From an uncultured Elusimicrobia bacterium (GTDB lineage Bacteria > Elusimicrobiota > Endomicrobiia > DTEH01), in NCBI GenBank assembly GCA_964561135.1, contig CAZLOB010000022.1:5718-69717 (forward strand): a stretch of DNA of 64,000 nt, written 5' to 3'. Below are positions 34,086-64,000 of this stretch, piece by piece. Position 1 is the stretch's first letter; each line of letters opens with the position of its first letter. The position numbers and the translations under genes were made by a program. The notes below the pieces were generated by a model. It was not told where the DNA came from and searched no databases. It worked only from the letters and a program-made list of their open reading frames with translations.

Positions 34086-34086
34086 T

Positions 34087-39762: not shown

Positions 39763-39777
39763 ACAACTTATAATGCT

Positions 39778-41058: not shown

Positions 41059-41578
41059 TTTGTTGTCTATATTACGAATGTGTTTTACATTTTTATTTGT
41101 TCACAGTTTGTTGAATGATAAAATTACTAAATCTATTCTATTTTTAAGTATATGTATTCTTACTGACTTTCTTGATGGATTTTTTGCACGTGTCTTTAAA
41201 CAGAAAACAAAAATAGGTGTTTTATTAGACCCGCTTGCTGATAAAGTTTTAGTTATATCAACATTAATAGTTTTAATGGTAAAAAACTATTTACCATGGT
41301 GGTTCTTTAGTATAATAATTATACGAGAAACGTTAGTTATCGCAGGCTGGATCGTTACATACCAACATACACCACAATCTTTTCCAAAACCACGTTTCTT
41401 AGGAAAAGTTTCAATAGCATTGTTAATGATAACTTTAATAATCGTAGTTTTAAATATCCATCTACAATACGAAATTGTTTCTGATATAATAAATGAACTA
41501 TTTTTTTTAACATCAGTTTTTGTCACAGGTTCTTTGGTTGATTATATTGGATACGCTAGAAAAGTTTTCTCAAAATAA
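41033..41578 (+). CDS. CDP-alcohol phosphatidyltransferase family protein (PgsA-like)
   Basis: The N-terminus PNLLSILR and the conserved D..DG...AR.......G...D...D motif (DFLDGFFAR...GVLLDPLADK) are present, with multi-TM topology. Confidence 0.65.
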   Translation: MNTLFTIPNLLSILRMCFTFLFVHSLLNDKITKSILFLSICILTDFLDGFFARVFKQKTKIGVLLDPLADKVLVISTLIVLMVKNYLPWWFFSIIIIRETLVIAGWIVTYQHTPQSFPKPRFLGKVSIALLMITLIIVVLNIHLQYEIVSDIINELFFLTSVFVTGSLVDYIGYARKVFSK

Positions 41579-41597
41579 AATTTTGTTATAAAAGATA

Positions 41598-42182
41598 ATG
41601 AAAAATTTTATAATATTTTTTTTATCATACATAATTGGTGGTATCCCCACTGCATTTATATTAACTAAAATCTTTAAAGGAGTAGATATACGAACTGTTG
41701 GGTCAAAAAATCCTGGCACAACAAATGTGATACGTACAGCAGGATTTTTGTTAGGAGCAATAACATTTATCATAGATTTTTTGAAAGGAGGAATATCTAT
41801 ATTTATTACAAAAAAATATTTAGGATATGAATTTTTGCCACTAACAATGTTTTTTACCGTGCTTGGGCATACAACATCCCCTTTTCTTTCGTTTAAAGGG
41901 GGAAAAGGTGTTGCAACATTTTTTGGTTCGCTATTTGCAATTTCAACTAATATGTTTATATATAGCTGTATTTGTTTTGCAATTATATTTTTATTAACAC
42001 ATATTGTGTCAATATCTTCTATTGTTTCAGTATTTTTTTTCTTTTGGTATGTGTTGTTAAAAAATCCAGTTGAGTATCAAGACACAAAAATATTTTTTCT
42101 ATTAACAGTCTTATGGATAATCTATAGACACAAGTCAAATATCAAAAGGTTAATATTAAAAGAAGAAAAAAGGTTGTTTTAA
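41598..42182 (+). CDS. plsY: Glycerol-3-phosphate acyltransferase PlsY (acyl-phosphate dependent)
   Basis: The PlsY motifs are GSKNPGTTN and SFKGGKGVAT in a ~194-aa membrane protein. It is adjacent to gpsA. Confidence 0.8.
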   Translation: MKNFIIFFLSYIIGGIPTAFILTKIFKGVDIRTVGSKNPGTTNVIRTAGFLLGAITFIIDFLKGGISIFITKKYLGYEFLPLTMFFTVLGHTTSPFLSFKGGKGVATFFGSLFAISTNMFIYSCICFAIIFLLTHIVSISSIVSVFFFFWYVLLKNPVEYQDTKIFFLLTVLWIIYRHKSNIKRLILKEEKRLF

Positions 42183-48448: not shown

Positions 48449-49183
48449 ATGAGTATAAGACCTATAGTGATGAAATTTGGGGGTTCTTCAGTAGCAAATG
48501 TTGAACGTATAAAAAATGTTGCTAAAATCATTGTTAATAAAAAGAAAAAGTATAAACATATTGTAGTTGTTGTTTCAGCACCTGGAGATATGACCGACGA
48601 ACTTATTGAAAAAGCATACCAAATCACTCCTGACCCTGATAAACGAGAATTTGATATGTTGTTATCTACAGGAGAACAAATATCAATTGCTCTTTTAGCA
48701 ATGGCATTACATACATTAAACTGTGATGCTATTTCTTTAACAGGACCACAAGCAGGCATCTATGCTGATGCATCATATACCAAAGCTAAAATTATTGATA
48801 TTGATACAAAAAAAATAAAAAGATATTTAAAACAAGGTAAAGTGGTTATAGTTGCTGGTTTTCAAGGAATAAATCCTTATCAAGATATAACAACCTTAGG
48901 ACGGGGCGGTTCTGACCTTACCGCAATAGCGTTAGCTGCAAAGTTAAAAAGTCCTATCTGCGAAATATATACAGATGTAGAAGGTGTCTATACTACAGAT
49001 CCAAGAATTGTACCAGAAGCAAGAAAAATTAATTATCTTACCTATGACGAAATGCTTGAGATAGCAGGCAGTGGCGCACAAGTTATGATGGCAAGATCTA
49101 TTGAAGTAGCAAAAAAATATAATGTTAAACTTGAAATAAAATCGTCTCTTGTTCGAAAACCAGGAACAATAATTTATAAATAA
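48449..49183 (+). CDS. Aspartokinase catalytic domain only (amino-acid kinase family), lacking C-terminal ACT regulatory domains
   Basis: The N-terminus IVMKFGGSSV and the aspartokinase signature LGRGGSDLTAIALAA...EIYTDVEGVYTTDPRIVP...MLE.A.SGAQV are present. The ORF ends at the catalytic/ACT junction (KPGTIIYK*), and no ACT-encoding ORF follows. An AAGGAAA RBS lies upstream. Confidence 0.7.
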   Translation: MSIRPIVMKFGGSSVANVERIKNVAKIIVNKKKKYKHIVVVVSAPGDMTDELIEKAYQITPDPDKREFDMLLSTGEQISIALLAMALHTLNCDAISLTGPQAGIYADASYTKAKIIDIDTKKIKRYLKQGKVVIVAGFQGINPYQDITTLGRGGSDLTAIALAAKLKSPICEIYTDVEGVYTTDPRIVPEARKINYLTYDEMLEIAGSGAQVMMARSIEVAKKYNVKLEIKSSLVRKPGTIIYK

Positions 49184-49257: not shown

Positions 49258-49286
49258 TTGACATATATAAAATAAATTTGTATCTT
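49258..49286 (+). promoter_or_regulatory. Putative sigma70-like promoter for queH-aroD (TTGACA, 17 nt spacer, TATCTT)
   Basis: A perfect -35 TTGACA sits at 49258-49263. The -10 at 49281-49286 is weak. This is the only >100-bp gap upstream of queH. Confidence 0.25.
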
Positions 49287-49295
49287 TTTATTCGT

Positions 49296-49838
49296 ATGAA
49301 CAACAATAAAGTATTGCTTCATATTTGTTGTGGAATATGCGCATTAGAATCTATAAATAGGTTACTACAGCAAAAGTATAAAGTTATAGGTTACTTTTAC
49401 AACCCTAACATTTATCCAAAAGAAGAATATCAAAAAAGATTACAAGTTGTTGAAAAAGTTGCTGAAATATACAATATTAAGATCATCTATGATAATTACG
49501 AACCTGAAGTTTGGCAAAAATTATGTGGACAATACGAAAGCGAACCTGAAGGGGGAAAAAGATGTTTATTGTGTTATGAATTAAGATTAAGAAAAACATA
49601 CAATACTATGGTAAAAGAAAATCTTGATTTATTCACTACGACACTTACTATAAGTCCACATAAAAAATCAAATATAATTTTTGAAATAGGTGAAAAAATT
49701 GGTGGTGAAAAATTTTTAAAAATTGATTTTAAAAAACATGACGGATTTAAAAAAACTATTGAACTAGCAAAACAATTCGAGTTTTATAGACAAAACTATT
49801 GTGGATGCAAATTTTCATTAAGAAAAACTATCTTATGA
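49296..49838 (+). CDS. queH: Epoxyqueuosine reductase QueH (DUF208)
   Basis: The N-terminus LLHICCGIC and the later CLLCYELR Cys motifs are characteristic of DUF208/QueH. The start is chosen at the ATG giving MNNNKVLLHICC. Confidence 0.7.
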   Translation: MNNNKVLLHICCGICALESINRLLQQKYKVIGYFYNPNIYPKEEYQKRLQVVEKVAEIYNIKIIYDNYEPEVWQKLCGQYESEPEGGKRCLLCYELRLRKTYNTMVKENLDLFTTTLTISPHKKSNIIFEIGEKIGGEKFLKIDFKKHDGFKKTIELAKQFEFYRQNYCGCKFSLRKTIL

Positions 49839-50575
49839 AAAAAACTAATCTTGTAGCAGTATTTACCTGCGAAAATATCAACAAACAATTATCTTTGCTT
49901 AAAAAATACAAAAATTTTATTGACAGCGTAGAAATAAGGGTTGACTCCTTTTATAAGAATAATAAAATCAAAGAAATACCAAATATTATAAAAAATATAA
50001 AAGATACTATACCAAAGATAAAAATTATTATAACATTCAGAAAACTTGAAGAAGGTGGTTGTGTAAAAGTTTATGAAAAAACAAGGCAATTTGTAATAAC
50101 AGAACTTTTAAAAAGTTCTCATCAATACATAAATTTCGTAGATATTGAATTTTTCTCTAAAATAAAAAATAAAATAATTAATCTAGCAAAAAAATATAAA
50201 AAAATTGTAATTTTATCGTTTCATAAATTAGACAAAAATTTTAAGCTAAATGAAGTAACAAAAATAATTAAAAAAATGCAAAAATTTGTTAATAGCAATA
50301 AAAAACACTGCATCATTAAAATAGTTGTTTATTGTGATTCATTATACAAATACATCGAGATCTTAAAAAGTGCTCACATTAAGCCAACAACGAAAACAAA
50401 AGTTTTTAAAAACATAAGCATTTTTTCTGTTGGCAAAACTTCGATACTTTCAAGGCTAATTTGTTTCGTTTTGGATATGCCGATTGTTTACGCTGCACTA
50501 TCAAAAGCAGTAATTAAAACACAGCCTACTATAAAACAGATTGTCAAAATAAAAAGACTTCTTGCCAACAACTAA
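49835..50575 (+). CDS. aroD: 3-dehydroquinate dehydratase, type I
   Basis: AroD motifs: IEIRVD (the Schiff-base barrel start), ITFRKLEEGG, SFH, and a C-terminal GK-S-SR pattern. The start is chosen at MKKTNLVAV and overlaps the queH stop (ATGA). Confidence 0.6.
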   Translation: MKKTNLVAVFTCENINKQLSLLKKYKNFIDSVEIRVDSFYKNNKIKEIPNIIKNIKDTIPKIKIIITFRKLEEGGCVKVYEKTRQFVITELLKSSHQYINFVDIEFFSKIKNKIINLAKKYKKIVILSFHKLDKNFKLNEVTKIIKKMQKFVNSNKKHCIIKIVVYCDSLYKYIEILKSAHIKPTTKTKVFKNISIFSVGKTSILSRLICFVLDMPIVYAALSKAVIKTQPTIKQIVKIKRLLANN

Positions 50576-50828
50576 ATTCTAAAAACTTAAACTTAAAATG
50601 ACGATTTAAAACTTAATCCGGCTATTGAATTTAACCAAATTTTAATCTAATTTTAAGTTCCTATAAGATATATTATGTTAATTTATATTTTTTGAATGAT
50701 ACTTTAAAATAAAGACGAAAAATTACGAAAAAACGAAATCATAAAACAAAAATTAATGTAATAGTTTAAATTCGAATAAAAATAAAAATTAAAGTAATAC
50801 TTGAAAATAGAAATTGCAAAAATTGTAA

Positions 50829-50861
50829 AACTTGCAGCTTCAAAAAAGAAACTTGCAAGTT
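50829..50861 (-). terminator. Possible weak hairpin at the pgeF stop codon, which may act as a bidirectional terminator
   Basis: An 8-bp stem (AACTTGCA paired with TGCAAGTT) with a 17-nt loop sits in the convergent aroD/pgeF gap. It includes the perfect 12-bp palindrome AACTTGCAAGTT (50850-50861) and is followed by T-rich sequence on the minus-strand transcript. It is AT-rich and weak. Confidence 0.2.
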
Positions 50862-51606
50862 AAACTTTTGTAATAATGGAAAGTAAGCGGTAAGAAGTGG
50901 CATTTTTTCTAAAAGAAAAGAAAAGGTCATCATGAAAAGTACAAAAACCAGTGTTAATAATCTGCTGTTTTGAAAAACCGAAATTTAAAAGTTTTTTAAA
51001 AAGTATATCAAATAAAGAAAATTTCTCCCCATCTACATAATAACAATTCCCGCAAATATGAGGGCCTGCTATAAATAGAGTATCTTTTAAAGAAAAAGAA
51101 AGAGTATTTAGTTTCTCAAAAAGACATTCTATTATACCTTTTTGCAATCCTATTCTTCCAATATGAACAAGTCCAAACCAGCTGTTTTCTATATCCACAA
51201 CAAATAAAGGGATACAATCGGCTGTAAAAATAGCAATAATTTCTTTATTATTTTTAGAAATTATGCCATCTGTATGTAGAATTATTTTATAGTCAACCAC
51301 AAAATTTTTGAATTGTAGTTTACCAAAATAACCTTCAAAATCTGACTGATTGGTTTCTATTATTTTATTATCGTGTATTTGCTCGCACATTACCACAACT
51401 TTGTTTAAAAATATACTTGGATATTTAGTAGCAAAAGAGTACAAAGAAAGGGTTTTTTCTTTAGAAATAAAAGGGATAAAAGGAATAGACAAGTTAGCTT
51501 CTTTGGTTTCAGATATTAAATTCTTTGTTGTAGTAAGTAACAAAAAATCTTTTATTTTAAAAGATATATAATCACAATTTTCTTCATAGCTAATCATTTT
51601 CCACAA
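50860..51606 (-). CDS. pgeF: Purine nucleoside phosphorylase/laccase-domain protein PgeF (YfiH/YlmD, DUF152)
   Basis: The motifs are TADCIP and GPHICGNCY(YV). It sits downstream of ftsZ as ylmD does in Bacillus. Confidence 0.75.
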   Translation of the reverse strand: MWKMISYEENCDYISFKIKDFLLLTTTKNLISETKEANLSIPFIPFISKEKTLSLYSFATKYPSIFLNKVVVMCEQIHDNKIIETNQSDFEGYFGKLQFKNFVVDYKIILHTDGIISKNNKEIIAIFTADCIPLFVVDIENSWFGLVHIGRIGLQKGIIECLFEKLNTLSFSLKDTLFIAGPHICGNCYYVDGEKFSLFDILFKKLLNFGFSKQQIINTGFCTFHDDLFFSFRKNATSYRLLSIITKV

Positions 51607-51613
51607 ATTCTTC

Positions 51614-52735
51614 TTAAAAACGTTCTATTATATGAGATGGCCCTCCTCCTGATTCTATACCTTTTATTGCTAACATAAGTTCCTCTGGACTTGAAGCTGC
51701 TTGTAACGCATCTTCTAACGATACTAATCCTTTTTTGAATAATTCTAACAATGCTTGGTTAAATGTTTGCATACCGTAAATTTTTCCTTGTTTCATCAAG
51801 TTTATAATATCACCCAAATTTTTTTCTTCTATACATTTTTTAACAGCTGGAGTAACTACCAAAACTTCTACTGCAGGAATTAACCCTTTTTTATCTTTTC
51901 TTGGTAGCAATCTTTGAGAAATAATACCTTTTAAAGTATCGGCAAGTTGTAAACGTACTTGGTTCTGTTGGTGTGGTGGAAATATATCTATTATTCTATT
52001 TATTGTTTGAACTGCATCAACAGTGTGAACTGTTGAAAGAACAAGATGGCCAAGTTGTGCTGCAGTAAGTGCAGCTTGCATTGTTTCAAGATCTCTCATC
52101 TCTCCAATTAAAATTACATCCGGATTTTGTCTAACAACATGTCTTAATGCTGAAACAAAAGATGTTGTATCATAAGGCACTTCTCTTTGTGATATAATCG
52201 ACTTTTTATCTTTATATACAAACTCTATAGGATCCTCAATCGTTATAATATGTGCAGGACGTGTAGAATTGATATAATCGATCATACATGCAAGTGTTGT
52301 TGATTTTCCTGAGCCTGCAGGCCCTGTAACAAGAATAAACCCACGGACATTCTCTGCAAGTTTATAAACGACTTCCGGCAAATTTAGTTCTTCTCTATTT
52401 GGTATTTGGAAAGGTATACGTCTTATAGCTATATTTATTACACCACGTTGATAAAATATATTCATTCTTAAACGAGCAATATTCTCAAAATTGTATCCTA
52501 TATCACACTCTTTCTCTAATTCAAACCTTTTTTGTTGTTGTGGCGTAGTTATATAAAGAACAAAATTTTCAATATCTTCTTTAGAAAGTATAAATTGTTG
52601 ATCTTCAATTGGCTGTAATATTCCATTTATTCTAACATATGGTACACATTCACTTCTTAAATGTAGATCGCTAGCATTAGTTTCCAAAAATTTTCTTATT
52701 ATATTAAATATTTTTTCAATATTTTTATCACTCAT
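51614..52735 (-). CDS. pilT: Type IV pilus retraction ATPase PilT (twitching motility protein)
   Basis: Walker A is GPAGSGKST. The PilT-type Asp box, Walker B and His box are present with the AIRNLIRE-like region (ALTAAQLGHLVLSTVHT). Length is 373 aa. Confidence 0.85.
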   Translation of the reverse strand: MSDKNIEKIFNIIRKFLETNASDLHLRSECVPYVRINGILQPIEDQQFILSKEDIENFVLYITTPQQQKRFELEKECDIGYNFENIARLRMNIFYQRGVINIAIRRIPFQIPNREELNLPEVVYKLAENVRGFILVTGPAGSGKSTTLACMIDYINSTRPAHIITIEDPIEFVYKDKKSIISQREVPYDTTSFVSALRHVVRQNPDVILIGEMRDLETMQAALTAAQLGHLVLSTVHTVDAVQTINRIIDIFPPHQQNQVRLQLADTLKGIISQRLLPRKDKKGLIPAVEVLVVTPAVKKCIEEKNLGDIINLMKQGKIYGMQTFNQALLELFKKGLVSLEDALQAASSPEELMLAIKGIESGGGPSHIIERF

Positions 52736-52738
52736 AAA

Positions 52739-53851
52739 CTACCTCAACACACGTAATTTACCAGTTCTAAAAAACTTTTGTTGGATTTCTTTTTCTTCTA
52801 AAATAGCATCTTCTTTATCTACAACTATTTCGGTTTTGGTACGTAACGATCTTAATGTTTTTTTAGATTTTGTTTTTTCAACCATTTGGAACCCACTTGC
52901 GATAATCGTAACTTCAACTTTATCTTCAAAATCATTAGAATTTACATATCCTATATAAGTCACGACTTCTTTATCCATATAATGTTGTAAATATTCAAAC
53001 GCATTATAAACATCGTGCCCTGTTATATTTTTCCCACAAATATTTACTAACAAATTTTTTGCACTACGAATATCAAATTCTATAAATGGATTATTCATAG
53101 CATTTTTTATTGCTTTTTTTAAACAGCTTTCAGCACTTGCTTTTTCTACACCATACGACATAATTATCTGGCCTGCATTTTTTAATACATTTCTTGCATC
53201 AGCATAATCAACATTGACATACCCTGGTTGTGTCACAACTTTCCACATACTTAACACCGCTTTGTGTAAAACATCATCTGCTAATCTATATAAAACTTCA
53301 CCAAAACTTAAATTAGGATACATTTCTAAAAATTTATTGTTTGGTATAGTCAATAAAGCATCAACATATTTTTTTAATTCTGTGATTCCTGTAATTGCAT
53401 TATCCATTCTTATTTTTCCTTCGAAGTCGAAAGGTTTTGTTACAACAGCCACTGTTAAAACACCCAATTCTTTAGCCACTCTTGCAATAACAGGTGTTGC
53501 ACCAGTCCCCGTCCCTTTCCCCATACCACAGGTTAAAAACACCATATCTGTATGTGTCAATAAGTCACGAATTATATCTATTGATTCTTCCGCAGCCTGT
53601 TTCCCAACAAGCGGATCTCCTCCAGACCCTTGTCCTTTTGTAGTTTTTGGACCTATATGTATAACAATTGGCGCTTTTGACTCTTTTAAAGCTTGCAGAT
53701 CTGTGTTGATAGCGATCATTTCTACAGAAGGATCAATAAGACCAGCAGTAGCGATTCTATTTATAGCGTTCCCTCCTGCACCACCAATCCCCATTATTTT
53801 TATTCTTACAGGATATTTTTTTGTAACAATATTGTCATCCATAGAAATCAC
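52739..53851 (-). CDS. ftsZ: Cell division protein FtsZ
   Basis: The tubulin signature GGGTGTG and GIGGAGGNA are present. Length is 370 aa. Confidence 0.9.
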   Translation of the reverse strand: MISMDDNIVTKKYPVRIKIMGIGGAGGNAINRIATAGLIDPSVEMIAINTDLQALKESKAPIVIHIGPKTTKGQGSGGDPLVGKQAAEESIDIIRDLLTHTDMVFLTCGMGKGTGTGATPVIARVAKELGVLTVAVVTKPFDFEGKIRMDNAITGITELKKYVDALLTIPNNKFLEMYPNLSFGEVLYRLADDVLHKAVLSMWKVVTQPGYVNVDYADARNVLKNAGQIIMSYGVEKASAESCLKKAIKNAMNNPFIEFDIRSAKNLLVNICGKNITGHDVYNAFEYLQHYMDKEVVTYIGYVNSNDFEDKVEVTIIASGFQMVEKTKSKKTLRSLRTKTEIVVDKEDAILEEKEIQQKFFRTGKLRVLR

Positions 53852-55143
53852 TCCCCAAAAAAACTCCAGATTTTACGAAAGAAACCTTTTATCCCTTTTG
53901 ACTGTTTTTTCCCTTTAAAAGGTTTTTTTTGACTTTCTATTTCGTATTTTATCAAACTTATTGAAGTAGTATAAGAAAAATTAGAAATAATATCTTCATC
54001 TCCCACAATAGAACTCTCCATACCTACATTTCCTGCACGAACATCAATACTTTCTTCAAGATCACTATATTCACTTTTTAACAACTCACGTAACGCGTCA
54101 GTAATACCCACCAAATTTCCCCCACCACCTGCTAAAACAACATCTCCATACTGTAGTGCTAACTCAACATAATGAATTTTTTTCAACTCGGGGATAACAA
54201 TGTCTAAAAAAATCTTTTCAATAACTTCAGCAATAATTTTTGCTATTTCTTTTTTTGTTGTAGTTCTAATATTTTTACCATCTCTGGATGGTATCTCAAC
54301 TTGTTCATCTTTTTTCACTGATGACGGTTGTGCAACACCATAACGACGTTTTATATTCTCTGCTACATTCCAAGATGTTTTATAATAAGCTGCAATTTCT
54401 CTCGTTATAAGGTCCGCTCCTAAATCAATATCTTTACTTTGAAACTCTCTACAATATCTTATGCATCCACCTAAATATACCACAGTCCCTATTGATTGTC
54501 CACCAAAATCTATTACTAAACAACCTAAATTACGTTCTTCAGCTTCCGTAACCAACTGTGCTAAAGAAATTAAACCATAATGTAAATTATCAATTACATA
54601 ACCAGCTTCCGTAAAAGTTCGTTCTATGTTCCTTATAAAACTTGAATATCCAACAATTGCATAAGCTTTTACTTCTAGAATACTTCCTTCCATATTAACA
54701 GGATTTGAAATTCCAGGTTGACCATCGATAATATACTCTTGAGGTATAATATTCATTATTAAACGATCATTCGAAATTCTTAAATTTTTTACTGCATGTT
54801 CAATAACTTTTTCTTGATCTTCAAAAGTAATTGTTCGATCAGTTGAGGTAATAGGAATTTGTGCTGAAGTTTCATAAGTACTTACAAACGGCCCTCTCAC
54901 ACCAACAATAAGTTTTGTCCTTTCAACTTTTGCCATATCTTCTAATGATGAAATCAACTCGTTTATAAGAGCAGCACTTCTCTCAATATCTTTAATTACA
55001 CCTGCAGAAATTGCTTCTTTATCGACTAACTGTTTACCTGCAATAATTTCTATAATTTCTTGTTCAGGATCGTACTTTCCTAAAACACCTGTAACACAAC
55101 CTGAACCTATATCAACCCCACAATAAATTTCTTCTTTTGGCAT
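53848..55143 (-). CDS. ftsA: Cell division protein FtsA
   Basis: It is actin-like, with the phosphate-1 motif GVDIGS, VIDFGGQS and the adenosine motif LAGGGG. It overlaps the ftsZ start. Confidence 0.85.
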   Translation of the reverse strand: MPKEEIYCGVDIGSGCVTGVLGKYDPEQEIIEIIAGKQLVDKEAISAGVIKDIERSAALINELISSLEDMAKVERTKLIVGVRGPFVSTYETSAQIPITSTDRTITFEDQEKVIEHAVKNLRISNDRLIMNIIPQEYIIDGQPGISNPVNMEGSILEVKAYAIVGYSSFIRNIERTFTEAGYVIDNLHYGLISLAQLVTEAEERNLGCLVIDFGGQSIGTVVYLGGCIRYCREFQSKDIDLGADLITREIAAYYKTSWNVAENIKRRYGVAQPSSVKKDEQVEIPSRDGKNIRTTTKKEIAKIIAEVIEKIFLDIVIPELKKIHYVELALQYGDVVLAGGGGNLVGITDALRELLKSEYSDLEESIDVRAGNVGMESSIVGDEDIISNFSYTTSISLIKYEIESQKKPFKGKKQSKGIKGFFRKIWSFFGE

Positions 55144-55199
55144 TTTTATTCTCCAAAAAAGAAATTATTTAAAATTTTTAAATATAAAATTATTAAGTT

Positions 55200-55970
55200 T
55201 TATTCAATATATGCCTTTCCATAGGATAATAACTGTGTATAAATTCTTGTGTTTTTATCAAATTTATATTTTATCAATTTAGATAGCATCTCTTTTTTTA
55301 CATTCTCAAATTTTTTGTCAACAATAAAATAAAGAATACAATTATCTTCCTCTCCACGGACACAAACAACATATTTATTGTTTTCTTTTCTAATTTTTTC
55401 AACTTTATCCCAAACATTAGCTTCACTAAATTTTTGATAGATAATCTTTAATGTTGGAATATCCACTTCGCCTTCTATATATGGCAGTTTAGCTAAATTA
55501 ATTTTTCTAGCATCATAAACTTTATACCATTTTATATCACTGGACAGAAACAAAATTCCATCATCAATTCCCTTTTTGTAACCTATTGGAGAAAAAGTAT
55601 GAATTTTAATTTTTAAAGGTTTTGTTGGAAAAAACATAATTTTTATCTCTTTAATTTCAGGAAAAACTTTTTGTAGTTTAAGAATATTTTTTTTATAATT
55701 AAAAACATCAAGATGTTCCGCATTTAGTTGTTTATAAATAATTTCGTCTGGTACTGTTGATTTGTTCTCGCATAAGTATACTTTTTGTATTTTAAAAACT
55801 TCATACTTAAAAACTTCATACAAAGATTTAACTTTACTTATTTTATAAACAACAAAAATCAAAATTGTTAAACAAGCTGTAGCCAATAAAAATCTGAAAA
55901 CAATTTTAAATTTTTTCTTTTTCTTATTTTTTTTCTTTACCAAAATGTTGAATGAATAATATCTACTCAT
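55200..55970 (-). CDS. ftsQ: FtsQ/DivIB-like cell division protein (single TM + POTRA-like)
   Basis: A K-rich cytoplasmic N-terminus, one TM helix and a periplasmic domain fit FtsQ. The position between ddl and ftsA is the canonical FtsQ position. Confidence 0.5.
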   Translation of the reverse strand: MSRYYSFNILVKKKNKKKKKFKIVFRFLLATACLTILIFVVYKISKVKSLYEVFKYEVFKIQKVYLCENKSTVPDEIIYKQLNAEHLDVFNYKKNILKLQKVFPEIKEIKIMFFPTKPLKIKIHTFSPIGYKKGIDDGILFLSSDIKWYKVYDARKINLAKLPYIEGEVDIPTLKIIYQKFSEANVWDKVEKIRKENNKYVVCVRGEEDNCILYFIVDKKFENVKKEMLSKLIKYKFDKNTRIYTQLLSYGKAYIE

Positions 55971-56925
55971 ATTTTTTAAATGACACGAAGACTATTTTTC
56001 TTACAAGCTCAGCAAAAGATATACCTTGATACTTAGCAGCTTCAGGCAATAAAGATGTCTCAGTCATACCAGGGACAGTGTTTACTTCTAACACATATGG
56101 TATTTTTTTTCTTTCATCAAAAATAGTATCTACTCTGCACAAAATTTCACACCCTATTAATTTTGCAGTTTTCAAAGCAATATTTTTAATTTTTTCATAT
56201 GAAATTTTATCAATTCTTGGTGGTATTAAATGTTGTGATCCCCCAGGCTGATATTTTGATTTATAGTCATAAAATCTGTTTAACTTTGGGATGATTTCTA
56301 TCAAAGGTAAAACTTCACCATCTAAAATAGGGACAGTTATTTCTTTTCCATTTATAAATTTTTCTATAATAATAACATTATCATACTTTAACGCATTTTT
56401 TACTGCAGGAATTAAATTTTTGTAATTATTCACGATAGAAGTGCCAATAGTTGAACCCTCACGTGCAGGTTTCACTACTAATGGAAAACCAAAATTTTTT
56501 TCTTTAACGAAATAAAAATTTTTTTCATCAATATCTTTTTTAATTTTAGAAAAGTTTAATACTTTAAAATCAGGTGTGGGTATTCCGTTATCTTTTAATA
56601 AAAGTTTTGTAAGATATTTATTCATTCCTATCATTGACGCTTCAACACCACAACCAGTATATTTAAGCCCTATATTCTCAAGTAACATTTGCAATTTACC
56701 ATCTTCACCAAATTTTCCATGTAATGCTATAAAAATAATATCGACTTTTTTCTTTTTTAATTTAAGTAATTGATTTACACAATGTTCTTTTTTAATATCA
56801 ATTAAAGAAACTTTAAAATCCTGCCATTTAGATAAGTTGTTAAACACAGCTTTACCAGTTTTCAAACTTATTTCTCGTTCAGAAGAGAAGCCACCACACA
56901 GTACCGCTATTTTGATCTTCCTCAT
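55963..56925 (-). CDS. ddl: D-alanine--D-alanine ligase
   Basis: This is an ATP-grasp enzyme with the Ddl N-terminus (IAVLCGGFSSEREISL, ALHGKFGEDG) and a C-terminal CRVDTIFDERKKIPYVLEVNTVPGMT. Confidence 0.85.
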   Translation of the reverse strand: MRKIKIAVLCGGFSSEREISLKTGKAVFNNLSKWQDFKVSLIDIKKEHCVNQLLKLKKKKVDIIFIALHGKFGEDGKLQMLLENIGLKYTGCGVEASMIGMNKYLTKLLLKDNGIPTPDFKVLNFSKIKKDIDEKNFYFVKEKNFGFPLVVKPAREGSTIGTSIVNNYKNLIPAVKNALKYDNVIIIEKFINGKEITVPILDGEVLPLIEIIPKLNRFYDYKSKYQPGGSQHLIPPRIDKISYEKIKNIALKTAKLIGCEILCRVDTIFDERKKIPYVLEVNTVPGMTETSLLPEAAKYQGISFAELVRKIVFVSFKKYE

Positions 56926-57854
56926 TATAACTCTACCCCAACAAAAGTTATTTCAGGCTGAAGTTCAATTTTATATTTTTCTTTCACAACTTTGATAATA
57001 TGCCGGATAAGATTTACAAAATCTTCACAAGTAGCATTATTTTTGTTTATAATAAAATTTGCATGTTTTTCTGAAACACAAGCCCCACCAATTGAAAAAC
57101 CTTTTAGTCCAGCAGATTCTATTAACTTTGCAGCAGTAAGTTCTGTTTCATATGGATTTTTAAAGATACAGCCAGCGTTAAAAGTACCTAAAGGTTGTGT
57201 CTGTATACGTTGAAGTAAAGCTTCGTTAAGCCGTTTTTTAATTAATTCTTTATCTTCTTTTTTAAGGCGAAAATGAGCAGATACAACTACATACTTGTTT
57301 TGTAACCCACTATTTCTGTATCCAAAATCTATCTGTTCTTTATACAATTTTATTATTCCTTGTTCAGGATCATCAATTTTAACAACTTCAATATATTCTA
57401 AACAATCAGATATTGTAGCTGTTTTTGTTCCAGCATTCATTATTATAGCGCCACCAACACTACCCGGTATTCCAAAAAGTTCTTCTAATCCAGATAAAGA
57501 ATGTTCTACAGTTGTATTTATCAATGAAGGTAACATCGTGGCTGAATATGCAATAACTTTTTCTTCTTCTATATTTACTGTAGAAAAATCTTTCTTTAGT
57601 TTAATTACAACACCATCAAAACCTTTGTCAGAAACTAACAAGTTTGACCCTGCACCAATGACAAAAATTTTTTCGTTATAAAATTTTATTATGGATAAAA
57701 CATCAATAAGTTGCGATATATTTTCTACATAGACAAAATATTTCGCAGGACCACCTATGTTTAATGTTGTGTGTTTATTTAACTTTTCATTAAGAACTAC
57801 ATTAATATTATGTTTTTTAAATGTTGTTATTATCTTATCTCCCATAATATTCAA
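56925..57854 (-). CDS. murB: UDP-N-acetylenolpyruvoylglucosamine reductase
   Basis: The FAD-binding PCMH domain (TTLNIGGPA, GAGSNLL) precedes a MurB C-terminal domain. Confidence 0.8.
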   Translation of the reverse strand: MNIMGDKIITTFKKHNINVVLNEKLNKHTTLNIGGPAKYFVYVENISQLIDVLSIIKFYNEKIFVIGAGSNLLVSDKGFDGVVIKLKKDFSTVNIEEEKVIAYSATMLPSLINTTVEHSLSGLEELFGIPGSVGGAIIMNAGTKTATISDCLEYIEVVKIDDPEQGIIKLYKEQIDFGYRNSGLQNKYVVVSAHFRLKKEDKELIKKRLNEALLQRIQTQPLGTFNAGCIFKNPYETELTAAKLIESAGLKGFSIGGACVSEKHANFIINKNNATCEDFVNLIRHIIKVVKEKYKIELQPEITFVGVEL

Positions 57855-59223
57855 TTAATTTATCTGCAATTTTGTATACATCACCTGCACCTAAAGTTAA
57901 AACAACGCTATCTTCAGCTAAATTTTTTAGATAGTTTACCAATCTGTCAAAATTATACATTTCAACATTATAACCATTTTTTACAAACTCGTCATATACT
58001 AATTTTATATTCACTCCTTCTATTGGTTTTTCATTAGCAGGATATATTTGTACAAGGAAAACTTTATCTTTATGTGAAAAAGCTTTCGGAAATTCTTTAT
58101 AAAGAAGTTGTGTACGTGTGTATCTATGTGGTTGGAAAACAACAACTATTTTTTTATTATTTGTTTTTATTCTTAATGTTTGAAGAGTATAATAAATTTC
58201 GGTTGGATGATGACCATAATCATCATAAACATCAATTACCTTATCATCAATAGCTATTTGCCCTTTAAATTCAATTCTACGTTTTATACCATCAAAACTT
58301 TCCAAAGCAGATTTTATATCTGAAAAATTAAACCCGCAAACAATACCTAAAGAAATTGTTGCTAACGCGTTCAATACGTTATGAATACCAGTCGTATTTA
58401 ACAATACTTTCCCTACCAATTTGTCATTTTTATATACTACAAACCTTGAAAAATTTGGTTTTAACTCAATATTTTTTGCAACAAAGTCATTGTTTCCATT
58501 TTTTATTCCATAAGTGTAATATTTTCTTTTAATTTTAGGTAATAACGAACAAATTCTTTTATCATCTCCATAAAGAATACTAAAGCCATAAAACGGAACA
58601 GAATTGAAATGTTGTAAAAACGCTTGTTTTAGATTATTCATAGATCCATAGTTGTCTAAATGGTCATTATCTATATTTGTGCAAACAACAATATAAGGTG
58701 ACAGATGTAAAAAAGAGCCATCACTTTCATCCGCTTCAACAACAATAAATTTACCCTTTCCAATTTTTGCTGACGAACCAATGTTTTTTAATATCCCACC
58801 GACAACTATTGTGGGATCATATCCACATTGTTGTAGTAGTAATCCTATCATTGAAGTTGTTGTTGTTTTTCCATGTGTACCACAAATACTTATTGTATAT
58901 TTCATTCTTGCAATTTCTACTAACATTTCAATACGAGGAATCACAGGAATGTTTCTTTTCTTTGCAGCAACTATTTCAGGATTATTCTCTTTTATTGCCG
59001 TGGAATAAACAACAACATCTACATCATTAACATTAGTAGCTTTATGGCCAATAAAAACTTTTGCACCTAATTTTTTTAATCTCTCTATCACGACAGAATT
59101 TTTTATATCAGACCCTGAAACTTGATATCCCAAATTAAGCAAAACTTCTGCGATACTGCTCATCCCACTGCCACCAATACCAATAAGATGTACTTTTTTT
59201 ACTTTATTAAATATTTCCTCCAT
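57835..59223 (-). CDS. murC: UDP-N-acetylmuramate--L-alanine ligase
   Basis: The Mur ligase N-terminal nucleotide-binding motif is GIGGSGMSSIAE, and the P-loop is GTHGKTTT. Confidence 0.85.
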   Translation of the reverse strand: MEEIFNKVKKVHLIGIGGSGMSSIAEVLLNLGYQVSGSDIKNSVVIERLKKLGAKVFIGHKATNVNDVDVVVYSTAIKENNPEIVAAKKRNIPVIPRIEMLVEIARMKYTISICGTHGKTTTTSMIGLLLQQCGYDPTIVVGGILKNIGSSAKIGKGKFIVVEADESDGSFLHLSPYIVVCTNIDNDHLDNYGSMNNLKQAFLQHFNSVPFYGFSILYGDDKRICSLLPKIKRKYYTYGIKNGNNDFVAKNIELKPNFSRFVVYKNDKLVGKVLLNTTGIHNVLNALATISLGIVCGFNFSDIKSALESFDGIKRRIEFKGQIAIDDKVIDVYDDYGHHPTEIYYTLQTLRIKTNNKKIVVVFQPHRYTRTQLLYKEFPKAFSHKDKVFLVQIYPANEKPIEGVNIKLVYDEFVKNGYNVEMYNFDRLVNYLKNLAEDSVVLTLGAGDVYKIADKLIEYYGR

Positions 59224-59225
59224 TT

Positions 59226-59624
59226 TTATTTTGACTCTCTTTTAACTATAGTTTTAATACCACCACGAAGGTTAAACTCAAGTTCTACATACAACCATTT
59301 TGGTTTTAACAATTTATTTAAATCTTCAAAAATTTGGTTCACTGCGGACTCGTGTACAATATGTACATTGCGATAACTTTGAATGTAATACTTTAGAGAC
59401 TTTAACTCAACACATACTTTATTTGGTACATATTTTATTCTAAGTGTTGCAAAATCGGGAAGGTTATTCCATGGACATAAACATGTAAATTCTTGCGTTT
59501 CAATTTCTATTGTTATATCTTTCCCTTTATATTCGTATTCTAGTGGTATTAACAACTCTGGCGAAATTTTATCAAATTTCACTGACAAATTCTTTATTCT
59601 ATCATATAATTCTACTTTTTTCAT
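59226..59624 (-). CDS. queF: NADPH-dependent 7-cyano-7-deazaguanine (preQ0) reductase, unimodular type
   Basis: The catalytic Cys context ([16 protein letters not shown]) and the QueF motif E(L)KSLK are present. Length is 132 aa. Confidence 0.85.
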
Positions 59625-60817
59625 TAATTAAAAATTTCTGTTACAATAAATTTTAAATATTCTGTTTCATCTTTCATCGGAAAATATATAGGATGATCTT
59701 CTGATTGTGTCCCATAATATATTATAAAACCTTTTTGTTCGTTTTTCAACATAGAAGATAAAATCAACTCTTCTATATCTTCCAACGAAATGTGTCTACT
59801 GCACACAGAAAAAGCTAAAAGTCCGTTGTTTGTTAACAATTTCATAATCTGTGATAAGACAAATTTATATTTCTTTTTTGCAGGATTAACATCTTTATCA
59901 GATTTTGCATATGATGGTGGATCAAAAATTATTAAATCAAACTTTGTTTTATTCTCTTGGATGAAATCTTCAATTTTTGCGCAAACAAACTCAACTTTGA
60001 CTTTATTTATTTTAGCATTTTCTTTTGCAAGTTCTATCGCATATGAAGACGAATCTACACCAATAACATTCTTGCAACCTGATAAAGCACAAATTACACC
60101 AAATGAACCTGTATAACAGCATAAATCAAGAACATTTTTATCATTAGCGATACAAGATATATATTTTCTGTTTTCAAATTGATCATAATAAAAACCTGTT
60201 TTTTGCCCATTTAAAACATCAACAACAAATTTTGCATTCAAATGTTCAATAACAGTTATTAATTCATTAGTAATTTTATTTTTTGAATAAACAACTTCTT
60301 TATATTTTGGTGCGACTTCAAGTTCTCGTTGGTAAATATCGTTGTTTACAACAATAAATTTTGGATTAAAAATATCTATTAAACAACTAAAAATTTCGTT
60401 TTTAAACAACTCCATTGCATAAGAAAAAAACTGTATAACAAAAATATCTCCGTATCTATCTATTACTACACCCGGTAAAAAATCACTCTCTCCATAAACA
60501 ATTCTACAGTACTTTATATTTATTCCATACTTCTTTCTTCTTTCTATTGCATTCTTTATTCTTTTATAAAAAAAATCTTTATTGATTTTTTCCTCTCTTC
60601 TTTGTGAAAGAATACGAATAGAAATTAAAGAATGTGGATTATATACACCTTTACACAAAAAATTATCTTTGTGATCATATACTTCGACAAAAGAAATTTG
60701 TTTTGTTAAGTTTTTATGTTCAATTTCATTAGAAAAAATCCATAAGTATCCATTTTTAACTCTGTTTTTAAATTGTTTTGAAACTTTAATTTTTATAGGT
60801 TCAACATAATTATTCAT
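59624..60817 (-). CDS. Class I SAM-dependent rRNA (cytosine-C5) methyltransferase, RlmI/RlmK-like (PUA + MTase, COG1092)
   Basis: An N-terminal PUA-like domain precedes a Rossmann MTase with SAM motif [11 protein letters not shown] and motif IV DPPSY. Length is 397 aa. Confidence 0.65.
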
Positions 60818-61631
60818 ATACTAACCAAAATTCTGATGATGTCAAATCAATTTTGTTTTTTAGAAACTCGTATGCATTAGCTTTGTTTATTGCAACTTCA
60901 ATATATCCGATAGAATTAACGTATGCTAAAAATTCTTTTTCTTTTACATCTGCATAACATTTTTTAATTTTGGCCTTAAACATAGGTTTATTTTTATAAC
61001 AAATTGTAAGATAATATCTCTCAATTTTGTTTTTATTTAATACTTCTTCAGGTAAAGATGTAATGATATTCCCGAAACTATCACTAAAAAGATATTTTCC
61101 AACAACAATTTTTTTATTACCAAGTTTTTTTATTTCATAAGAAAAGTTTTGTAGTGTTATAATTTTTGATTTTTCAAATTTTTCACAAATTTTTTTAATA
61201 GGCACATTTTTAGATATATAAGCACCTACAGGTGAAAAAATATCCCGTCCATGGAAAGTATTACTTATTTTAGGTAAAAAAAATTTTGTGTTAACTATTT
61301 TATAAACTGAATAATTTTTTTCTTTATCTATCACTTTTGTTATTAATCCATTATTGGGTACAATAAAAACATAAAATCTTGTCTTTATCAAAAGTATTTC
61401 TCTTTCACTTCCTACTCCAGGGTCAACTACACATACAAAAATACTTCCTCTCGGAAAAAACTCATAAGATTTTGCAAGGATAACTGATGCTTGTAGAACA
61501 TTTTGTGGTGCAATATTATGACAAAGATCAATTATTTCTGCATTAGGATTTATCTTTTTAATTACTCCTTTCATTTGGCCAATATAAAAGTCGTTATTGA
61601 AATCTGTCAACAAAACAATAGGCCTTTTCAT
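60810..61631 (-). CDS. S-adenosyl-L-methionine hydroxide adenosyltransferase (DUF62 SAM hydrolase, fluorinase/chlorinase superfamily)
   Basis: The motifs are N-terminal LLTDF, VVDPGVGS and the highly conserved TFHGRDIFSPV. Length is ~273 aa. Confidence 0.75.
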   Translation of the reverse strand: MKRPIVLLTDFNNDFYIGQMKGVIKKINPNAEIIDLCHNIAPQNVLQASVILAKSYEFFPRGSIFVCVVDPGVGSEREILLIKTRFYVFIVPNNGLITKVIDKEKNYSVYKIVNTKFFLPKISNTFHGRDIFSPVGAYISKNVPIKKICEKFEKSKIITLQNFSYEIKKLGNKKIVVGKYLFSDSFGNIITSLPEEVLNKNKIERYYLTICYKNKPMFKAKIKKCYADVKEKEFLAYVNSIGYIEVAINKANAYEFLKNKIDLTSSEFWLVYE

Positions 61632-62335
61632 TTTATATAATACAAGGTCCTGTGTAACTGAGGAATTATATGTATTGATGGTACATATCTTTTTGCTTTC
61701 CTAAAAATTTCAACAAGATTAAAAAAAAGTTTTCTATTTCTTTTTTTTAATGCTGAAGTTTCCGGCTGTAATACCAAAATTTTTGGTTTTGCATTTTTTA
61801 AAAGATGACAAATTTTTTTTAATGTATTTTTTTTATACCACGCTCTCCCACAAACCACCATCTTTATAAAAAACTTCTTATTTTTATTCTTACATAAACT
61901 AATAACTTTTTCAGCTTCACGCAGTGTATTTTTTTTATTTAAATCATCATCTGGAATTTTGACATTAACTGCGCAAACATCTATAAGATCTATTATTTTT
62001 TCAAATTGGTTTAATGATGAAGCATTTGTTTCTAAATAAATTTTTACTCTACAATTTTTTATAATCTCTTTTATAAAAAACGGTAGATCTTTTTGTAGCA
62101 AAGGTTCACCACCTGTTAAACTTATAAACTCAGGTCTATATTTTTTAACATATTCCAAAACTTTTTTAACAGCAACATTTAATTCAACTTTATCCTTTGA
62201 TGAAACTTTTTTTGCATATTTTGTATCACAATAACAACAACTAAGATTACATCCTGCAAACCTTACAAACACCGTTGGGCAACCAATATAAGGACCTTCA
62301 GCTTGGTAAGAAAAGAAAATTTCTTTAATGTTCAT
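61628..62335 (-). CDS. queE: 7-carboxy-7-deazaguanine synthase (radical SAM)
   Basis: The N-terminus EIFFSYQAEGPYIGCPTVFVRFAGCNLSCCYCDTKY is a QueE-type modified CxxxCxxC cluster motif. Confidence 0.8.
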   Translation of the reverse strand: MNIKEIFFSYQAEGPYIGCPTVFVRFAGCNLSCCYCDTKYAKKVSSKDKVELNVAVKKVLEYVKKYRPEFISLTGGEPLLQKDLPFFIKEIIKNCRVKIYLETNASSLNQFEKIIDLIDVCAVNVKIPDDDLNKKNTLREAEKVISLCKNKNKKFFIKMVVCGRAWYKKNTLKKICHLLKNAKPKILVLQPETSALKKRNRKLFFNLVEIFRKAKRYVPSIHIIPQLHRTLYYIK

Positions 62336-63000
62336 TTTTTATCCAATGGATCAACAAGCCCTGCTTTTTTAAACCCCATTTTACGAAACCTGCAAGAGTC
62401 ACAACTTCCACAAGGTCTTTTTGCACCTTTATAACAACTCCATGTGTTTTGCAAAGGGACACCAAGTTTTACTGCTAATTTAACAATTTCTTCTTTTGTC
62501 AAATTGATAAGTGGAGCAACAATTTTTATTTTTTTACCACTTACACCCTTCTTTGTTCCAACATTTATCATTTTTTGGAAAGCGTCAACAAACTCTTGCC
62601 TACAGTCAGGATATCCAGAAAAATCAATTTGGTTTGCTCCAAAAAAAATGTAATTAGCATCTATTACTTCTGCCAAAGATGTTGCAAACGATAAAAATAT
62701 TATATTTCTTGCAGGAACATAAGTTAACGGGATTACATTTTTGTGTTTGCTTTTAGTCAACTTAAGTTTTTTATTAATTAACGAACTACCTTTCCAAGGT
62801 AGACCAAATTTTACAACATAGTATTTCAACCCTAAACTTTTAGCAATTTTTTTTGCACAATAAATTTCTTTTTTATGTCTTTGTCCATAGTCAAATATAA
62901 GGCACACAGGCTTATATCCTTGCTTAATTACATAATAAAGAGTGGTAGTAGAATCTAACCCGCCAGAAAGTAAAACAACACATTTTTTATTCTTCTTCAT
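62332..63000 (-). CDS. queC: 7-cyano-7-deazaguanine synthase
   Basis: The PP-loop SGGLDS (VVLLSGGLDSTT) and the C-terminal zinc-binding Cys cluster (C..CGSCDSC) are present. Confidence 0.85.
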   Translation of the reverse strand: MKKNKKCVVLLSGGLDSTTTLYYVIKQGYKPVCLIFDYGQRHKKEIYCAKKIAKSLGLKYYVVKFGLPWKGSSLINKKLKLTKSKHKNVIPLTYVPARNIIFLSFATSLAEVIDANYIFFGANQIDFSGYPDCRQEFVDAFQKMINVGTKKGVSGKKIKIVAPLINLTKEEIVKLAVKLGVPLQNTWSCYKGAKRPCGSCDSCRFRKMGFKKAGLVDPLDKK

Positions 63001-63373
63001 AACTCGCGTACTGGGTTGGTGTTTCCCACACGATAACCTTTATTTTTTGTATATTTTTATATTTTAAAAGTTTCTCTTTTAATTTTTCGTATATAAACTT
63101 TGCAATATTTTCTGCAGTTGGTTGATTATTTTTAAAAAATGGAAGGTTGTTTAAATATTTATGGTCTAACTGGTATAAAATTTTGTTCAAAACTTTTTTT
63201 AATTTCACAAAATCTATTACCATTTGTTGAGTGTTTAACTTTGTAGATGAAACGATAACCCCTACTTTCCAATTATGTCCATGTAGATTCTCACATTTAC
63301 CTTTATATAATTTCAAATGATGTGCAGCAGAAAAACTGTTTTCTACATATACTTCAAATTTATTCACTTTCAT
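62987..63373 (-). CDS. queD: 6-carboxy-5,6,7,8-tetrahydropterin synthase (PTPS-like)
   Basis: The 128-aa protein has the zinc-binding His motif (SAAHHL...HGHNW) and an E-x-P-T region (ETPTQ). Confidence 0.8.
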   Translation of the reverse strand: MKVNKFEVYVENSFSAAHHLKLYKGKCENLHGHNWKVGVIVSSTKLNTQQMVIDFVKLKKVLNKILYQLDHKYLNNLPFFKNNQPTAENIAKFIYEKLKEKLLKYKNIQKIKVIVWETPTQYASYEEE

Positions 63374-64000
63374 TCAATTTTAACTTTTTTAACATATTTT
63401 ATTTCTTGACCTAATAACAACGATCCTATTTTTTTAAAACTTTCAGGATTGTCAGAAACAAAAAATTTATATTTTGGTTTGTTATTCCTAAATTTACACA
63501 ATTTATTTTCTTCAAGAATTTTTTTAACTTCTTTTGCTGTTTCTAACGACGAATCCACAACAGTAACATTTTTACCAATTATATCTTGAATTATATTTTT
63601 TATTGCAGGATAATGAGTACAACCTAATACTAAAACATCAATACCAAAATTTTTTAAAGGTGCTAAATACTCAGCTGATAGTTGTCTTAAAATATTTTCA
63701 TGGTTTATTGTTTGATAATAGTCACTATTTATAAGTTGAAGTTTATCAATCCATCCTTCTTCTATTAAAGGGACAAACAAAGGTGTTGGTTGGCAAAAAA
63801 TTTTTGCCTTATTACAAATTTTTTTAATCGCTTTTATATATGATTTGCTTTTTATAGTTGCTTTTGTACCGATTACTCCAATTTTATAATTTTTTGTGTA
63901 TTCAACAGCAGCCCTAGCACCAGGAGTGACAACTTCTACTATTTTGAGATTTTTAAACATTTTTTTTAACATTGGGATAGCATATGATGATGAAGTATTA
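63370..64000 (-). CDS. murI: Glutamate racemase (C-terminal ~2/3; N-terminal coding part lies beyond the window end)
   Basis: The second catalytic Cys motif LGCTHYP and the IGVIGT-like region are present. The frame remains open to position 64000, so the true start is off-window. Confidence 0.7.
   Translation of the reverse strand, partial: NTSSSYAIPMLKKMFKNLKIVEVVTPGARAAVEYTKNYKIGVIGTKATIKSKSYIKAIKKICNKAKIFCQPTPLFVPLIEEGWIDKLQLINSDYYQTINHENILRQLSAEYLAPLKNFGIDVLVLGCTHYPAIKNIIQDIIGKNVTVVDSSLETAKEVKKILEENKLCKFRNNKPKYKFFVSDNPESFKKIGSLLLGQEIKYVKKVKIE

Follow-up and report, generated by a model that had tools for sequence, protein, structure and literature searches.

The genes for synthesis of the queuosine precursor preQ1 lie in a long minus-strand array of peptidoglycan and cell division genes in an uncultured member of the Endomicrobiia (Elusimicrobiota), represented by a genome of the metagenome-assembled genome (MAG) type with ~28% GC. 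In the 64-kb stretch that was analysed (hereafter the window), queD, queC, queE and queF, with two further genes between queE and queF, are found between murI and murC. This gene order is genuine, and it is conserved across the class Endomicrobiia and partly across phyla. Gene families were assigned by NCBIfam and Pfam profile searches on six-frame open reading frames (ORFs; 66 ORF-genes in the window) and by comparisons with PDB entries. The ORF listing gives an unbroken minus-strand series from 63972 to 50860, in the order murI'-queD-queC-queE-SAM hydrolase (DUF62)-RlmI-like-queF-murC-murB-ddl-ftsQ-like-ftsA-ftsZ-pilT-pgeF (Table 1; SAM, S-adenosylmethionine).

Neighboring genes of the array overlap or nearly abut, with the following distances (nt; negative values are overlaps): murI/queD -4, queD/queC -14, queC/queE -4, queE/SAM hydrolase -4, SAM hydrolase/rlmI -8, rlmI/queF -1, queF/murC +2, murC/murB -20, murB/ddl -1, ddl/ftsQ -8, ftsQ/ftsA +56, ftsA/ftsZ -4, ftsZ/pilT +3, and pilT/pgeF +7. 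Thus, the junctions range from -20 to +7 nt, with the 56 nt between ftsQ and ftsA as the sole real spacer; at the murI/queD junction the queD ATG overlaps the murI stop codon (ATGA). The ORF listing and the junction sequences reproduce exactly the gene order and junction values of an earlier sequence-only reading of this DNA. Identical MurC with the same neighbors was found on contigs from six separate sample/run accessions; these contigs, together with nine agreeing related genomes, rule out an assembly chimera.

Conservation of the gene order

In a MurC-anchored scan using one genome per species, the nearest MurC relatives were Endomicrobiia/Elusimicrobia MAGs, and the order murI-queD-queC-queE-(X)-queF-murC-murB-ddl-ftsQ-ftsA-ftsZ-pilT-pgeF was present in 7/7 such loci. 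The same order was identified on a 1.1-Mb contig of GCA_017880035.1 and on one metagenome contig; it is therefore shared by all nine related loci retrieved (L007-L012, L017, L096, and L097; MurC identity 63-80%). None of the 73 loci of other taxa retrieved in the MurC scan has a que-gene run beside murC; a weak queE-like radical-SAM match lies upstream in L027 and in no other of them. When eight Endomicrobiia loci are compared, murI and queD are -10 to 31 nt apart, and queF and murC -7 to 22 nt. The only junction that keeps a spacer is ftsQ/ftsA (23-102 nt in 7/8 relatives; 1178 nt in L010). The 3' flank of pgeF differs among Endomicrobiia, being either a convergent aroD/queH or a same-strand pheA-aminotransferase arrangement; the flanks have been rearranged while the block has not, which indicates that the block is more stable than its surroundings.

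Gene content within the block varies at one place, between queE and queF. This segment holds the SAM hydrolase and RlmI-like genes in the window and in most relatives, NTPase_1 and RlmI-like genes in L010 (which is missing the SAM hydrolase gene), NTPase_1 and SAM hydrolase genes in L011 (which is missing the RlmI-like gene), and an NTPase_1 remnant in L009. The queE-queF zone is a gene-turnover hotspot. The NTPase_1 gene, which is THEP1-like, recurs just 5' of queF or rlmI (L010 7797-8396; L011 8204-8803; L009 7078-7311, truncated), and is also present in the more distant loci L088 (6950-7471) and L093 (7325-7921).

Upstream of murI, the relatives encode, in the same direction, FliG-MotA/ExbB-MotB/OmpA-MotB/OmpA-histidine kinase-Amidase_3 (AmiC-type). 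The FliG, MotA/ExbB, two MotB-plug/OmpA and histidine kinase genes were located at 1-5017 in L007 and 1-5401 in L096 (co-directional), and at 1-3659 in L090 (divergent). The proximal genes of the division and cell wall (dcw) cluster (mraZ, rsmH, ftsL, ftsI, murE, murF, mraY, murD, ftsW, and murG) were found neither directly upstream in the relatives (10 kb) nor among the 66 ORF-genes of the window, where murA stands alone (Table 1). A contiguous, co-directional murC-(murB)-ddl-ftsQ-ftsA-ftsZ run is present, in which ftsQ is named by position only. The sequence-only reading had placed the que genes inside the dcw operon: the distal murC-ftsZ module does adjoin them, whereas on the other side an amidase-murI module takes the place of the proximal half (mraZ to murG). 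A position inside a canonical dcw cluster is ruled out by the annotated upstream regions of the relatives. The que block is thus flanked by an amidase-murI module on one side and by the distal murC-ftsZ module on the other.

Deeper lineages were surveyed through the genomic context of QueF homologs and a QueF-anchored metagenome scan; the frequencies given here describe samples among the matches listed, and are not a census. Outside the Endomicrobiia, the run amidase-murI-queD-queC-queE-queF was found in 11 loci with GC contents of 33-50%. The amidase is of an Elusimicrobiota-like type in L087, L090, and L098; L092 is labeled Candidatus Omnitrophica by NCBI (GCA_028715345.1), and the amidase of L121, L122, L124, L125, L132, L143, and L169 (GC 36-50%) is of the same type as in L092. 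Amidase-murI lies directly upstream in 11/13 of the queDCEF runs outside Endomicrobiia, with L118 and L094 as the exceptions, and murC follows the amidase-murI-queDCEF run in 0/11 loci. In the metagenome sample, murI-queDCE precedes queF in 8/31 loci with at least 3.2 kb of upstream sequence, and likewise in L125, which has only 3.15 kb. In L092 (5229-6311) and L122 (5150-6256) a tmRNA gene and a tRNA gene immediately precede the run, and this position suggests a transcription start just upstream of the amidase gene in these Omnitrophota-like loci.

The second junction also occurs on its own. In L088, L093, and L100, queF directly heads murC...ftsZ(-pilT-pgeF) without queDCE, and in L089 it is two small genes upstream of murC, again without queDCE (MurC identity to the window 51-53% in all four loci). 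The spacer before queF is 376 nt in L089 and 79 nt in L093. queF stands by itself in a WOR-3 locus, as it does in most of the remaining loci sampled. Both junctions, murI-que and queF-murC, are therefore older than the Endomicrobiia, and the order in this class represents either an intact ancestral array that was broken later elsewhere or a secondary fusion of two older linkages, of which amidase-murI-queDCEF is shared with other Elusimicrobiota and Omnitrophota-like genomes and queF-murC...ftsZ with other Elusimicrobiota. With nine related Endomicrobiia loci in agreement, and each junction kept separately in distant lineages, the arrangement is more than chance.

Expression of the que genes and competing explanations

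No preQ1 riboswitch was detected at the Rfam gathering score in the whole window, in which only two tRNAs were found, or in 14 related loci, seven of them outgroup loci; over 50500-64000, the preQ1-I, -II and -III models failed to match even with the threshold relaxed to E ≤ 10. A hidden riboswitch was rejected on the basis of these scans. The sequence-only reading had noted that the que genes lack a riboswitch, spacers and an independent leader, which is borne out by the Rfam scans of the window and by the junction distances. It had also held that que genes are normally riboswitch-controlled; this is true of Bacillus-type operons, not in general, and does not describe the 14 related loci either. 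Consensus scans found no minus-strand terminator-like site in the 50-64 kb region and promoter-like sites at chance level (89 vs 84.5 ± 9 in shuffles), and an inverted-repeat search downstream of pgeF gave nothing convincing.

Given that the que genes show neither a leader of their own nor a dedicated riboswitch or terminator, they are most likely expressed by read-through. The explanation that we favor, and consider fairly probable, is that this read-through occurs within the long peptidoglycan/division array and that preQ1 supply scales with growth. Four que genes and two SAM-related passengers set between murI and murC-murB-ddl-ftsQ-ftsA-ftsZ-pilT-pgeF would be transcribed from the long housekeeping array, perhaps with added input from promoters inside upstream coding sequence, and translational coupling would be possible at the start/stop overlaps of ATGA type. 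The supply of preQ1 would then follow envelope growth and division, and not preQ1 feedback. The gene identities, the junctions, the lack of a riboswitch or terminator signal and the conservation are shown by the data; co-transcription, growth-linked expression and any selective reason for the arrangement are inferred.

Several observations weigh against this explanation. The promoter and terminator scans are simple and weak at 28% GC, and co-transcription rests on missing signals. Most of the que genes have at best a weak Shine-Dalgarno-like motif before them, which makes these motifs uninformative on translational coupling. Unrelated neighbors elsewhere in the window are packed nearly as tightly (aroA/ispH, 5 nt; murA/hisD, -11 nt; ilvD/glycosyltransferase, -4 nt), and none of folE, tgt and queA was seen in the 64-kb window. 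A promoter-like site matching 11/12 consensus positions is located in the 3' end of rlmI. The genes found between queE and queF also differ among relatives, and this zone could mark a boundary at which one transcription unit gives way to another.

Accordingly, the que genes and murC-ftsZ could be adjacent and separately transcribed, with embedded promoters (in the rlmI 3' end and in murI) driving them as distinct units; this is possible, if doubtful in our judgment, and it partly overlaps with the read-through explanation. The rlmI site (TTGAAA-17-TATAAT; Table 1) is kept in most relatives, the queE-queF segment varies in gene content, and the spacers that precede queF where it heads the murC array (376 nt in L089 and 79 nt in L093) make an ancestral promoter before queF plausible. 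Internal promoters inside ddlB, ftsQ and ftsA are known from the E. coli dcw cluster. However, a conserved peptide motif is encoded at the very position of the conserved site, and in an alignment of eight relatives promoter conservation before queF was indistinguishable from coding constraint. Moreover, promoter-like sites are no commoner than in shuffled sequence and there is no terminator-like element between the two units, such that read-through would still link them.

The packing of the genome bears on another explanation, neutral hitch-hiking, whereby the que genes landed by chance in a compacted genome, separation was costly (overlapping frames and low rearrangement), and the order carries no regulatory meaning. 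Coding sequence makes up 97% of the window, and of the same-strand junctions outside the cluster, 67% measure ≤10 nt, often between unrelated genes (also ispH/M23 peptidase, prmC/murA, hisB/leuA, and mutL-miaA-hflX-pgsA-plsY). There are long runs of mixed function, such as aroA-ispH-M23 peptidase-L31-prfA-prmC-murA-hisD-hisB-leuA, and passengers (SAM hydrolase, RlmI-like, and NTPase_1) have been gained or lost inside the block. The overlaps, which had been read as a sign of special coupling, were thus overstated as evidence: abutment is a habit of the whole genome, and the weight of the argument therefore falls on conservation. In this respect hitch-hiking fares poorly, and we regard it as unlikely. 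The amidase-murI-queDCEF run persists at 33-50% GC with wholly different flanks, including on Omnitrophota-like contigs, amidase-murI is upstream of nearly all queDCEF runs sampled outside Endomicrobiia (see above), and within Endomicrobiia the flanks were rearranged while the block remained unchanged. The cluster is also tighter than the rest of the window when same-strand gaps are compared (median gap -4 vs +4.5 nt; overlapping junctions 71% vs 33%; Mann-Whitney, p = 0.03).

A direct functional tie between the 7-deazaguanine/queuosine (Q) pathway and the envelope or division might take the form of a Que enzyme on the divisome, Q-tRNA tuning the translation of division proteins, or envelope use of an intermediate. 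The linkage of peptidoglycan and que genes recurs across phyla, and in the metagenome locus L094 (3086-10788) queDCEF lies in another envelope cluster, between kdsB-kdsA-kdsD-kdsC and lpxL-lptC-lptB (KDO/LPS transport). Neither MurI nor the amidase is known to have a metabolite in common with QueD/C/E/F, which, on general pathway knowledge, speaks against such a tie, as does the solitary queF of WOR-3 and other lineages. Synteny of queEC with tol-pal or porE has been published (PMC12204202), and E. coli QueE co-localizes with FtsZ and blocks division when abundant (PMC11142719). However, that block needs an enterobacterial-specific region (E45-E51), and the activity is absent in B. subtilis and P. 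aeruginosa QueE (PMC11142719). Aligned with E. coli QueE (6NHL), the QueE of the window matches as far as query residue 52, where the enterobacterial region begins, whereas its alignment with B. subtilis QueE runs contiguously to residue 131; the protein thus appears to be of the B. subtilis type, without the enterobacterial segment. A direct functional tie is on this evidence quite unlikely. An ancient, general coupling of the 7-deazaguanine/queuosine pathway to septal peptidoglycan remodeling or division, for example with a Que enzyme or Q-tRNA as a checkpoint, is similarly improbable; the recurrence of the amidase-murI-queDCEF(-murC...ftsZ) linkage across phyla might reflect such a coupling when taken with tol-pal-queEC synteny and the effect of E. 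coli QueE on FtsZ.

The last alternative, that the block supplies 7-deazaguanine bases for DNA modification or a secondary metabolite, could draw on the lack of tgt and queA in the 64-kb window and on the SAM-related passengers inside the block, but is very improbable given that QueF (preQ0 to preQ1) and QueH (epoxyqueuosine to queuosine), both of the bacterial tRNA-queuosine route, are present and that the neighborhood of the block showed no DpdA/TGT-like or defense genes. The presence of queF together with queH makes tRNA queuosine the most likely end product.

Genes of the array and other features of the window

The sequence-only reading described a complete preQ0 to preQ1 pathway. QueD, QueC and QueF score above their family cut-offs and QueE is a probable assignment from its best matches; the first enzyme, FolE, is missing from the list. 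The best NCBIfam matches of the queE product are QueE models, all below their cut-offs (top 93.7 vs 300), each of its top three PDB matches is a QueE, it aligns contiguously with the B. subtilis enzyme, and the slot between queC and queF is kept in relatives. QueF retains intact motifs (the Cys-containing EFTCLCP and the QueF motif ELKSLKYY). The four genes are not contiguous as a stand-alone operon, as queE is separated from queF by the SAM hydrolase and RlmI-like genes and there are no flanking spacers. For the RlmI-like protein, 23S m5C methyltransferase models match below cut-off, and the PDB matches are PH1915 and YccW/RlmI. Full-length murI orthologs (L007, L087, and L092) pass TIGR00067, and the L089 positional counterpart of the ftsQ-like gene has a weak POTRA_1 match. 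The pilT-family ATPase gene between ftsZ and pgeF is kept in Endomicrobiia and in the distant Elusimicrobiota-like loci L088, L089, and L093.

A fifth queuosine gene, queH, was not in the list of the sequence-only reading. It occupies the same place in L096, as does a tblastn match in each of L007 and L008. The gene begins 94 nt after an aspartate kinase gene that encodes the catalytic domain only (244 aa; profile positions 4-242 of ~407; no ACT domains), and an AA_kinase gene is in the same position in L096.

Table 1. Positions of the array genes, the candidate promoter site and other features in the 64-kb window.
Feature	Position	Strand	Evidence or remark
murI (glutamate racemase)	63370-63972+	-	5' end cut by window edge; NF002035 E 5e-41, profile positions 89-265
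queD (6-carboxytetrahydropterin synthase)	62987-63373	-	TIGR03367 103 bits > 89.25 cut-off; PF01242
queC (7-cyano-7-deazaguanine synthase)	62332-63000	-	TIGR00364 228 bits > 150.3 cut-off; PF06508 E 1e-75
queE (7-carboxy-7-deazaguanine synthase)	61628-62335	-	radical SAM, CX3CX2C motif, Bacillus-like; QueE models below cut-off
SAM hydrolase / SAM hydroxide adenosyltransferase (DUF62)	60810-61631	-	PF01887 E 4e-50 and PF20257; (R)-SAM hydrolase models below cut-off
RlmI-like PUA-domain SAM-dependent RNA (m5C-type) methyltransferase	59624-60817	-	PUA_3 and Methyltrans_SAM
candidate sigma-70-like site TTGAAA-17-TATAAT	59721-59749	-	inside rlmI 3' end, ~97 nt before queF ATG; 11/12 match
queF (unimodular preQ1 synthase)	59226-59624	-	TIGR03139 135 bits > 86.9 cut-off
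murC	57835-59223	-	TIGR01082 504 bits, above cut-off
murB	56925-57854	-	NF010480 319 bits, above cut-off
ddl	55963-56925	-	NF002378 348 bits, above cut-off
ftsQ-like	55200-55970	-	no family match; named by canonical slot between ddl and ftsA
ftsA	53848-55143	-	TIGR01174 219 bits, above cut-off
ftsZ	52739-53851	-	TIGR00065 326 bits, above cut-off
pilT-family ATPase	51614-52735	-	TIGR01420 455 bits, above cut-off
pgeF/YfiH-family	50860-51606	-	last array gene; TIGR00726 E 2.5e-27, below cut-off; PF02578 in L001 called gene
queH (epoxyqueuosine reductase)	49278-49838	+	PF02677 E 1e-59; convergent with array, ~1 kb beyond pgeF
aspartate kinase	48449-49183	+	catalytic domain only
miaB-mutS and mutL-miaA-hflX-pgsA-plsY arrays	32790-42182	+	mutL-miaA-hflX at 37097-41058
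murA	14145-15428		alone
TauE/SafE fragment	6541-6891	+	116 aa
prfB (RF2)	3220-4342	+	candidate programmed +1 frameshift

Elsewhere in the window, the miaB-mutS and mutL-miaA-hflX-pgsA-plsY arrays pack tRNA-modification genes with unrelated housekeeping genes, and resemble E. coli mutL-miaA-hfq-hflX. The prfB (RF2) gene is a candidate for programmed +1 frameshifting: a short ORF from the ATG at 3220 ends with CTT (3292-3294) TAA (3295-3297) C, GGAG lies 5 nt upstream of the CTT, and the +1 frame then encodes the PCRF and RF-1 domains as far as 4342; TAA takes the place of the classical TGA as the in-frame stop. A 116-aa TauE/SafE fragment, covering half of a 237-position profile, is encoded between an aminotransferase and DAHP synthase in an aromatic amino-acid array, and could derive from the truncation or splitting of a membrane-protein gene.

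Comparison with known systems and significance

The array is a conserved gene-order variant of known cluster types, apparently undescribed, and not a new kind of system. As in the canonical dcw cluster of E. coli and B. subtilis, the distal murC-murB-ddl-ftsQ-ftsA-ftsZ genes are co-directional and a pgeF/ylmD-type gene lies downstream of ftsZ; unlike that cluster, murC is preceded by queF and not murG, the proximal half is missing, and pilT is inserted between ftsZ and pgeF. The Bacillus-type queCDEF operon has the same four enzymes encoded in one direction, with a similar QueE and a unimodular QueF, but is headed by a preQ1-I riboswitch leader; here the order is D-C-E...F, two unrelated genes separate queE from queF, the flanks are peptidoglycan genes, and there is no leader, riboswitch or transcription signal of its own.

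A precedent of another sort, the E. coli amiB-mutL-miaA-hfq-hflX superoperon, is a long multi-promoter housekeeping array that includes an Amidase_3 septal amidase gene and a tRNA-modification gene, although the modification is i6A and not Q, the intervening genes are different, and in the window mutL-miaA-hflX is separate from the que block. The closest parallels are two published cases of que genes or a Que enzyme near envelope or division functions. In Proteobacteria queEC is commonly syntenic with tol-pal, and in Bacteroidetes with porE (PMC12204202). The tol-pal-cpoB-queE-queC and porE-queEC arrangements likewise place que genes in or at the tail of an envelope/division cluster, across lineages and for no known biochemical reason (PMC12204202); in contrast, the partners here are the amidase, murI and murC-ftsZ instead of tolQRAB-pal-cpoB, and all of queD/C/E/F are involved. 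No TolB, Pal or CpoB was seen near the que block, where the only comparable genes are MotA_ExbB and MotB_plug/OmpA genes four to five genes upstream in relatives, next to FliG. The presence of E. coli QueE at the Z-ring also links a queuosine enzyme to FtsZ-dependent division, but that link is post-translational, stress-induced and dependent on an enterobacteria-specific segment (PMC11142719), whereas the link described here is one of gene order, with a QueE of apparent B. subtilis type.

Our literature searches, which extended to queuosine in Elusimicrobia and to queF with murC, yielded no description of this arrangement or of que genes within a dcw or murI setting. The novelty proposed in the sequence-only reading had been made subject to the order in relatives: the literature appears not to describe the order, whereas in the genomes of relatives it is widespread.

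Clues to function are few for uncultured phyla, and gene order that is kept over deep divergence is among them. The present case places the preQ1 synthesis of Elusimicrobiota, and apparently also that of Omnitrophota, in a peptidoglycan/division array without metabolite-sensing control of its own, and this is a third, independent case of proximity between que genes and envelope/division functions, after the tol-pal-queEC synteny and E. coli QueE-FtsZ. The arrangement is a marker for Endomicrobiia genomes, and murI/queD and queF/murC are concrete, testable junctions. A functional coupling would mean that a tRNA wobble modification is tied to cell-cycle control; co-expression alone would instead indicate that streamlined genomes swap dedicated regulation for placement in housekeeping arrays.

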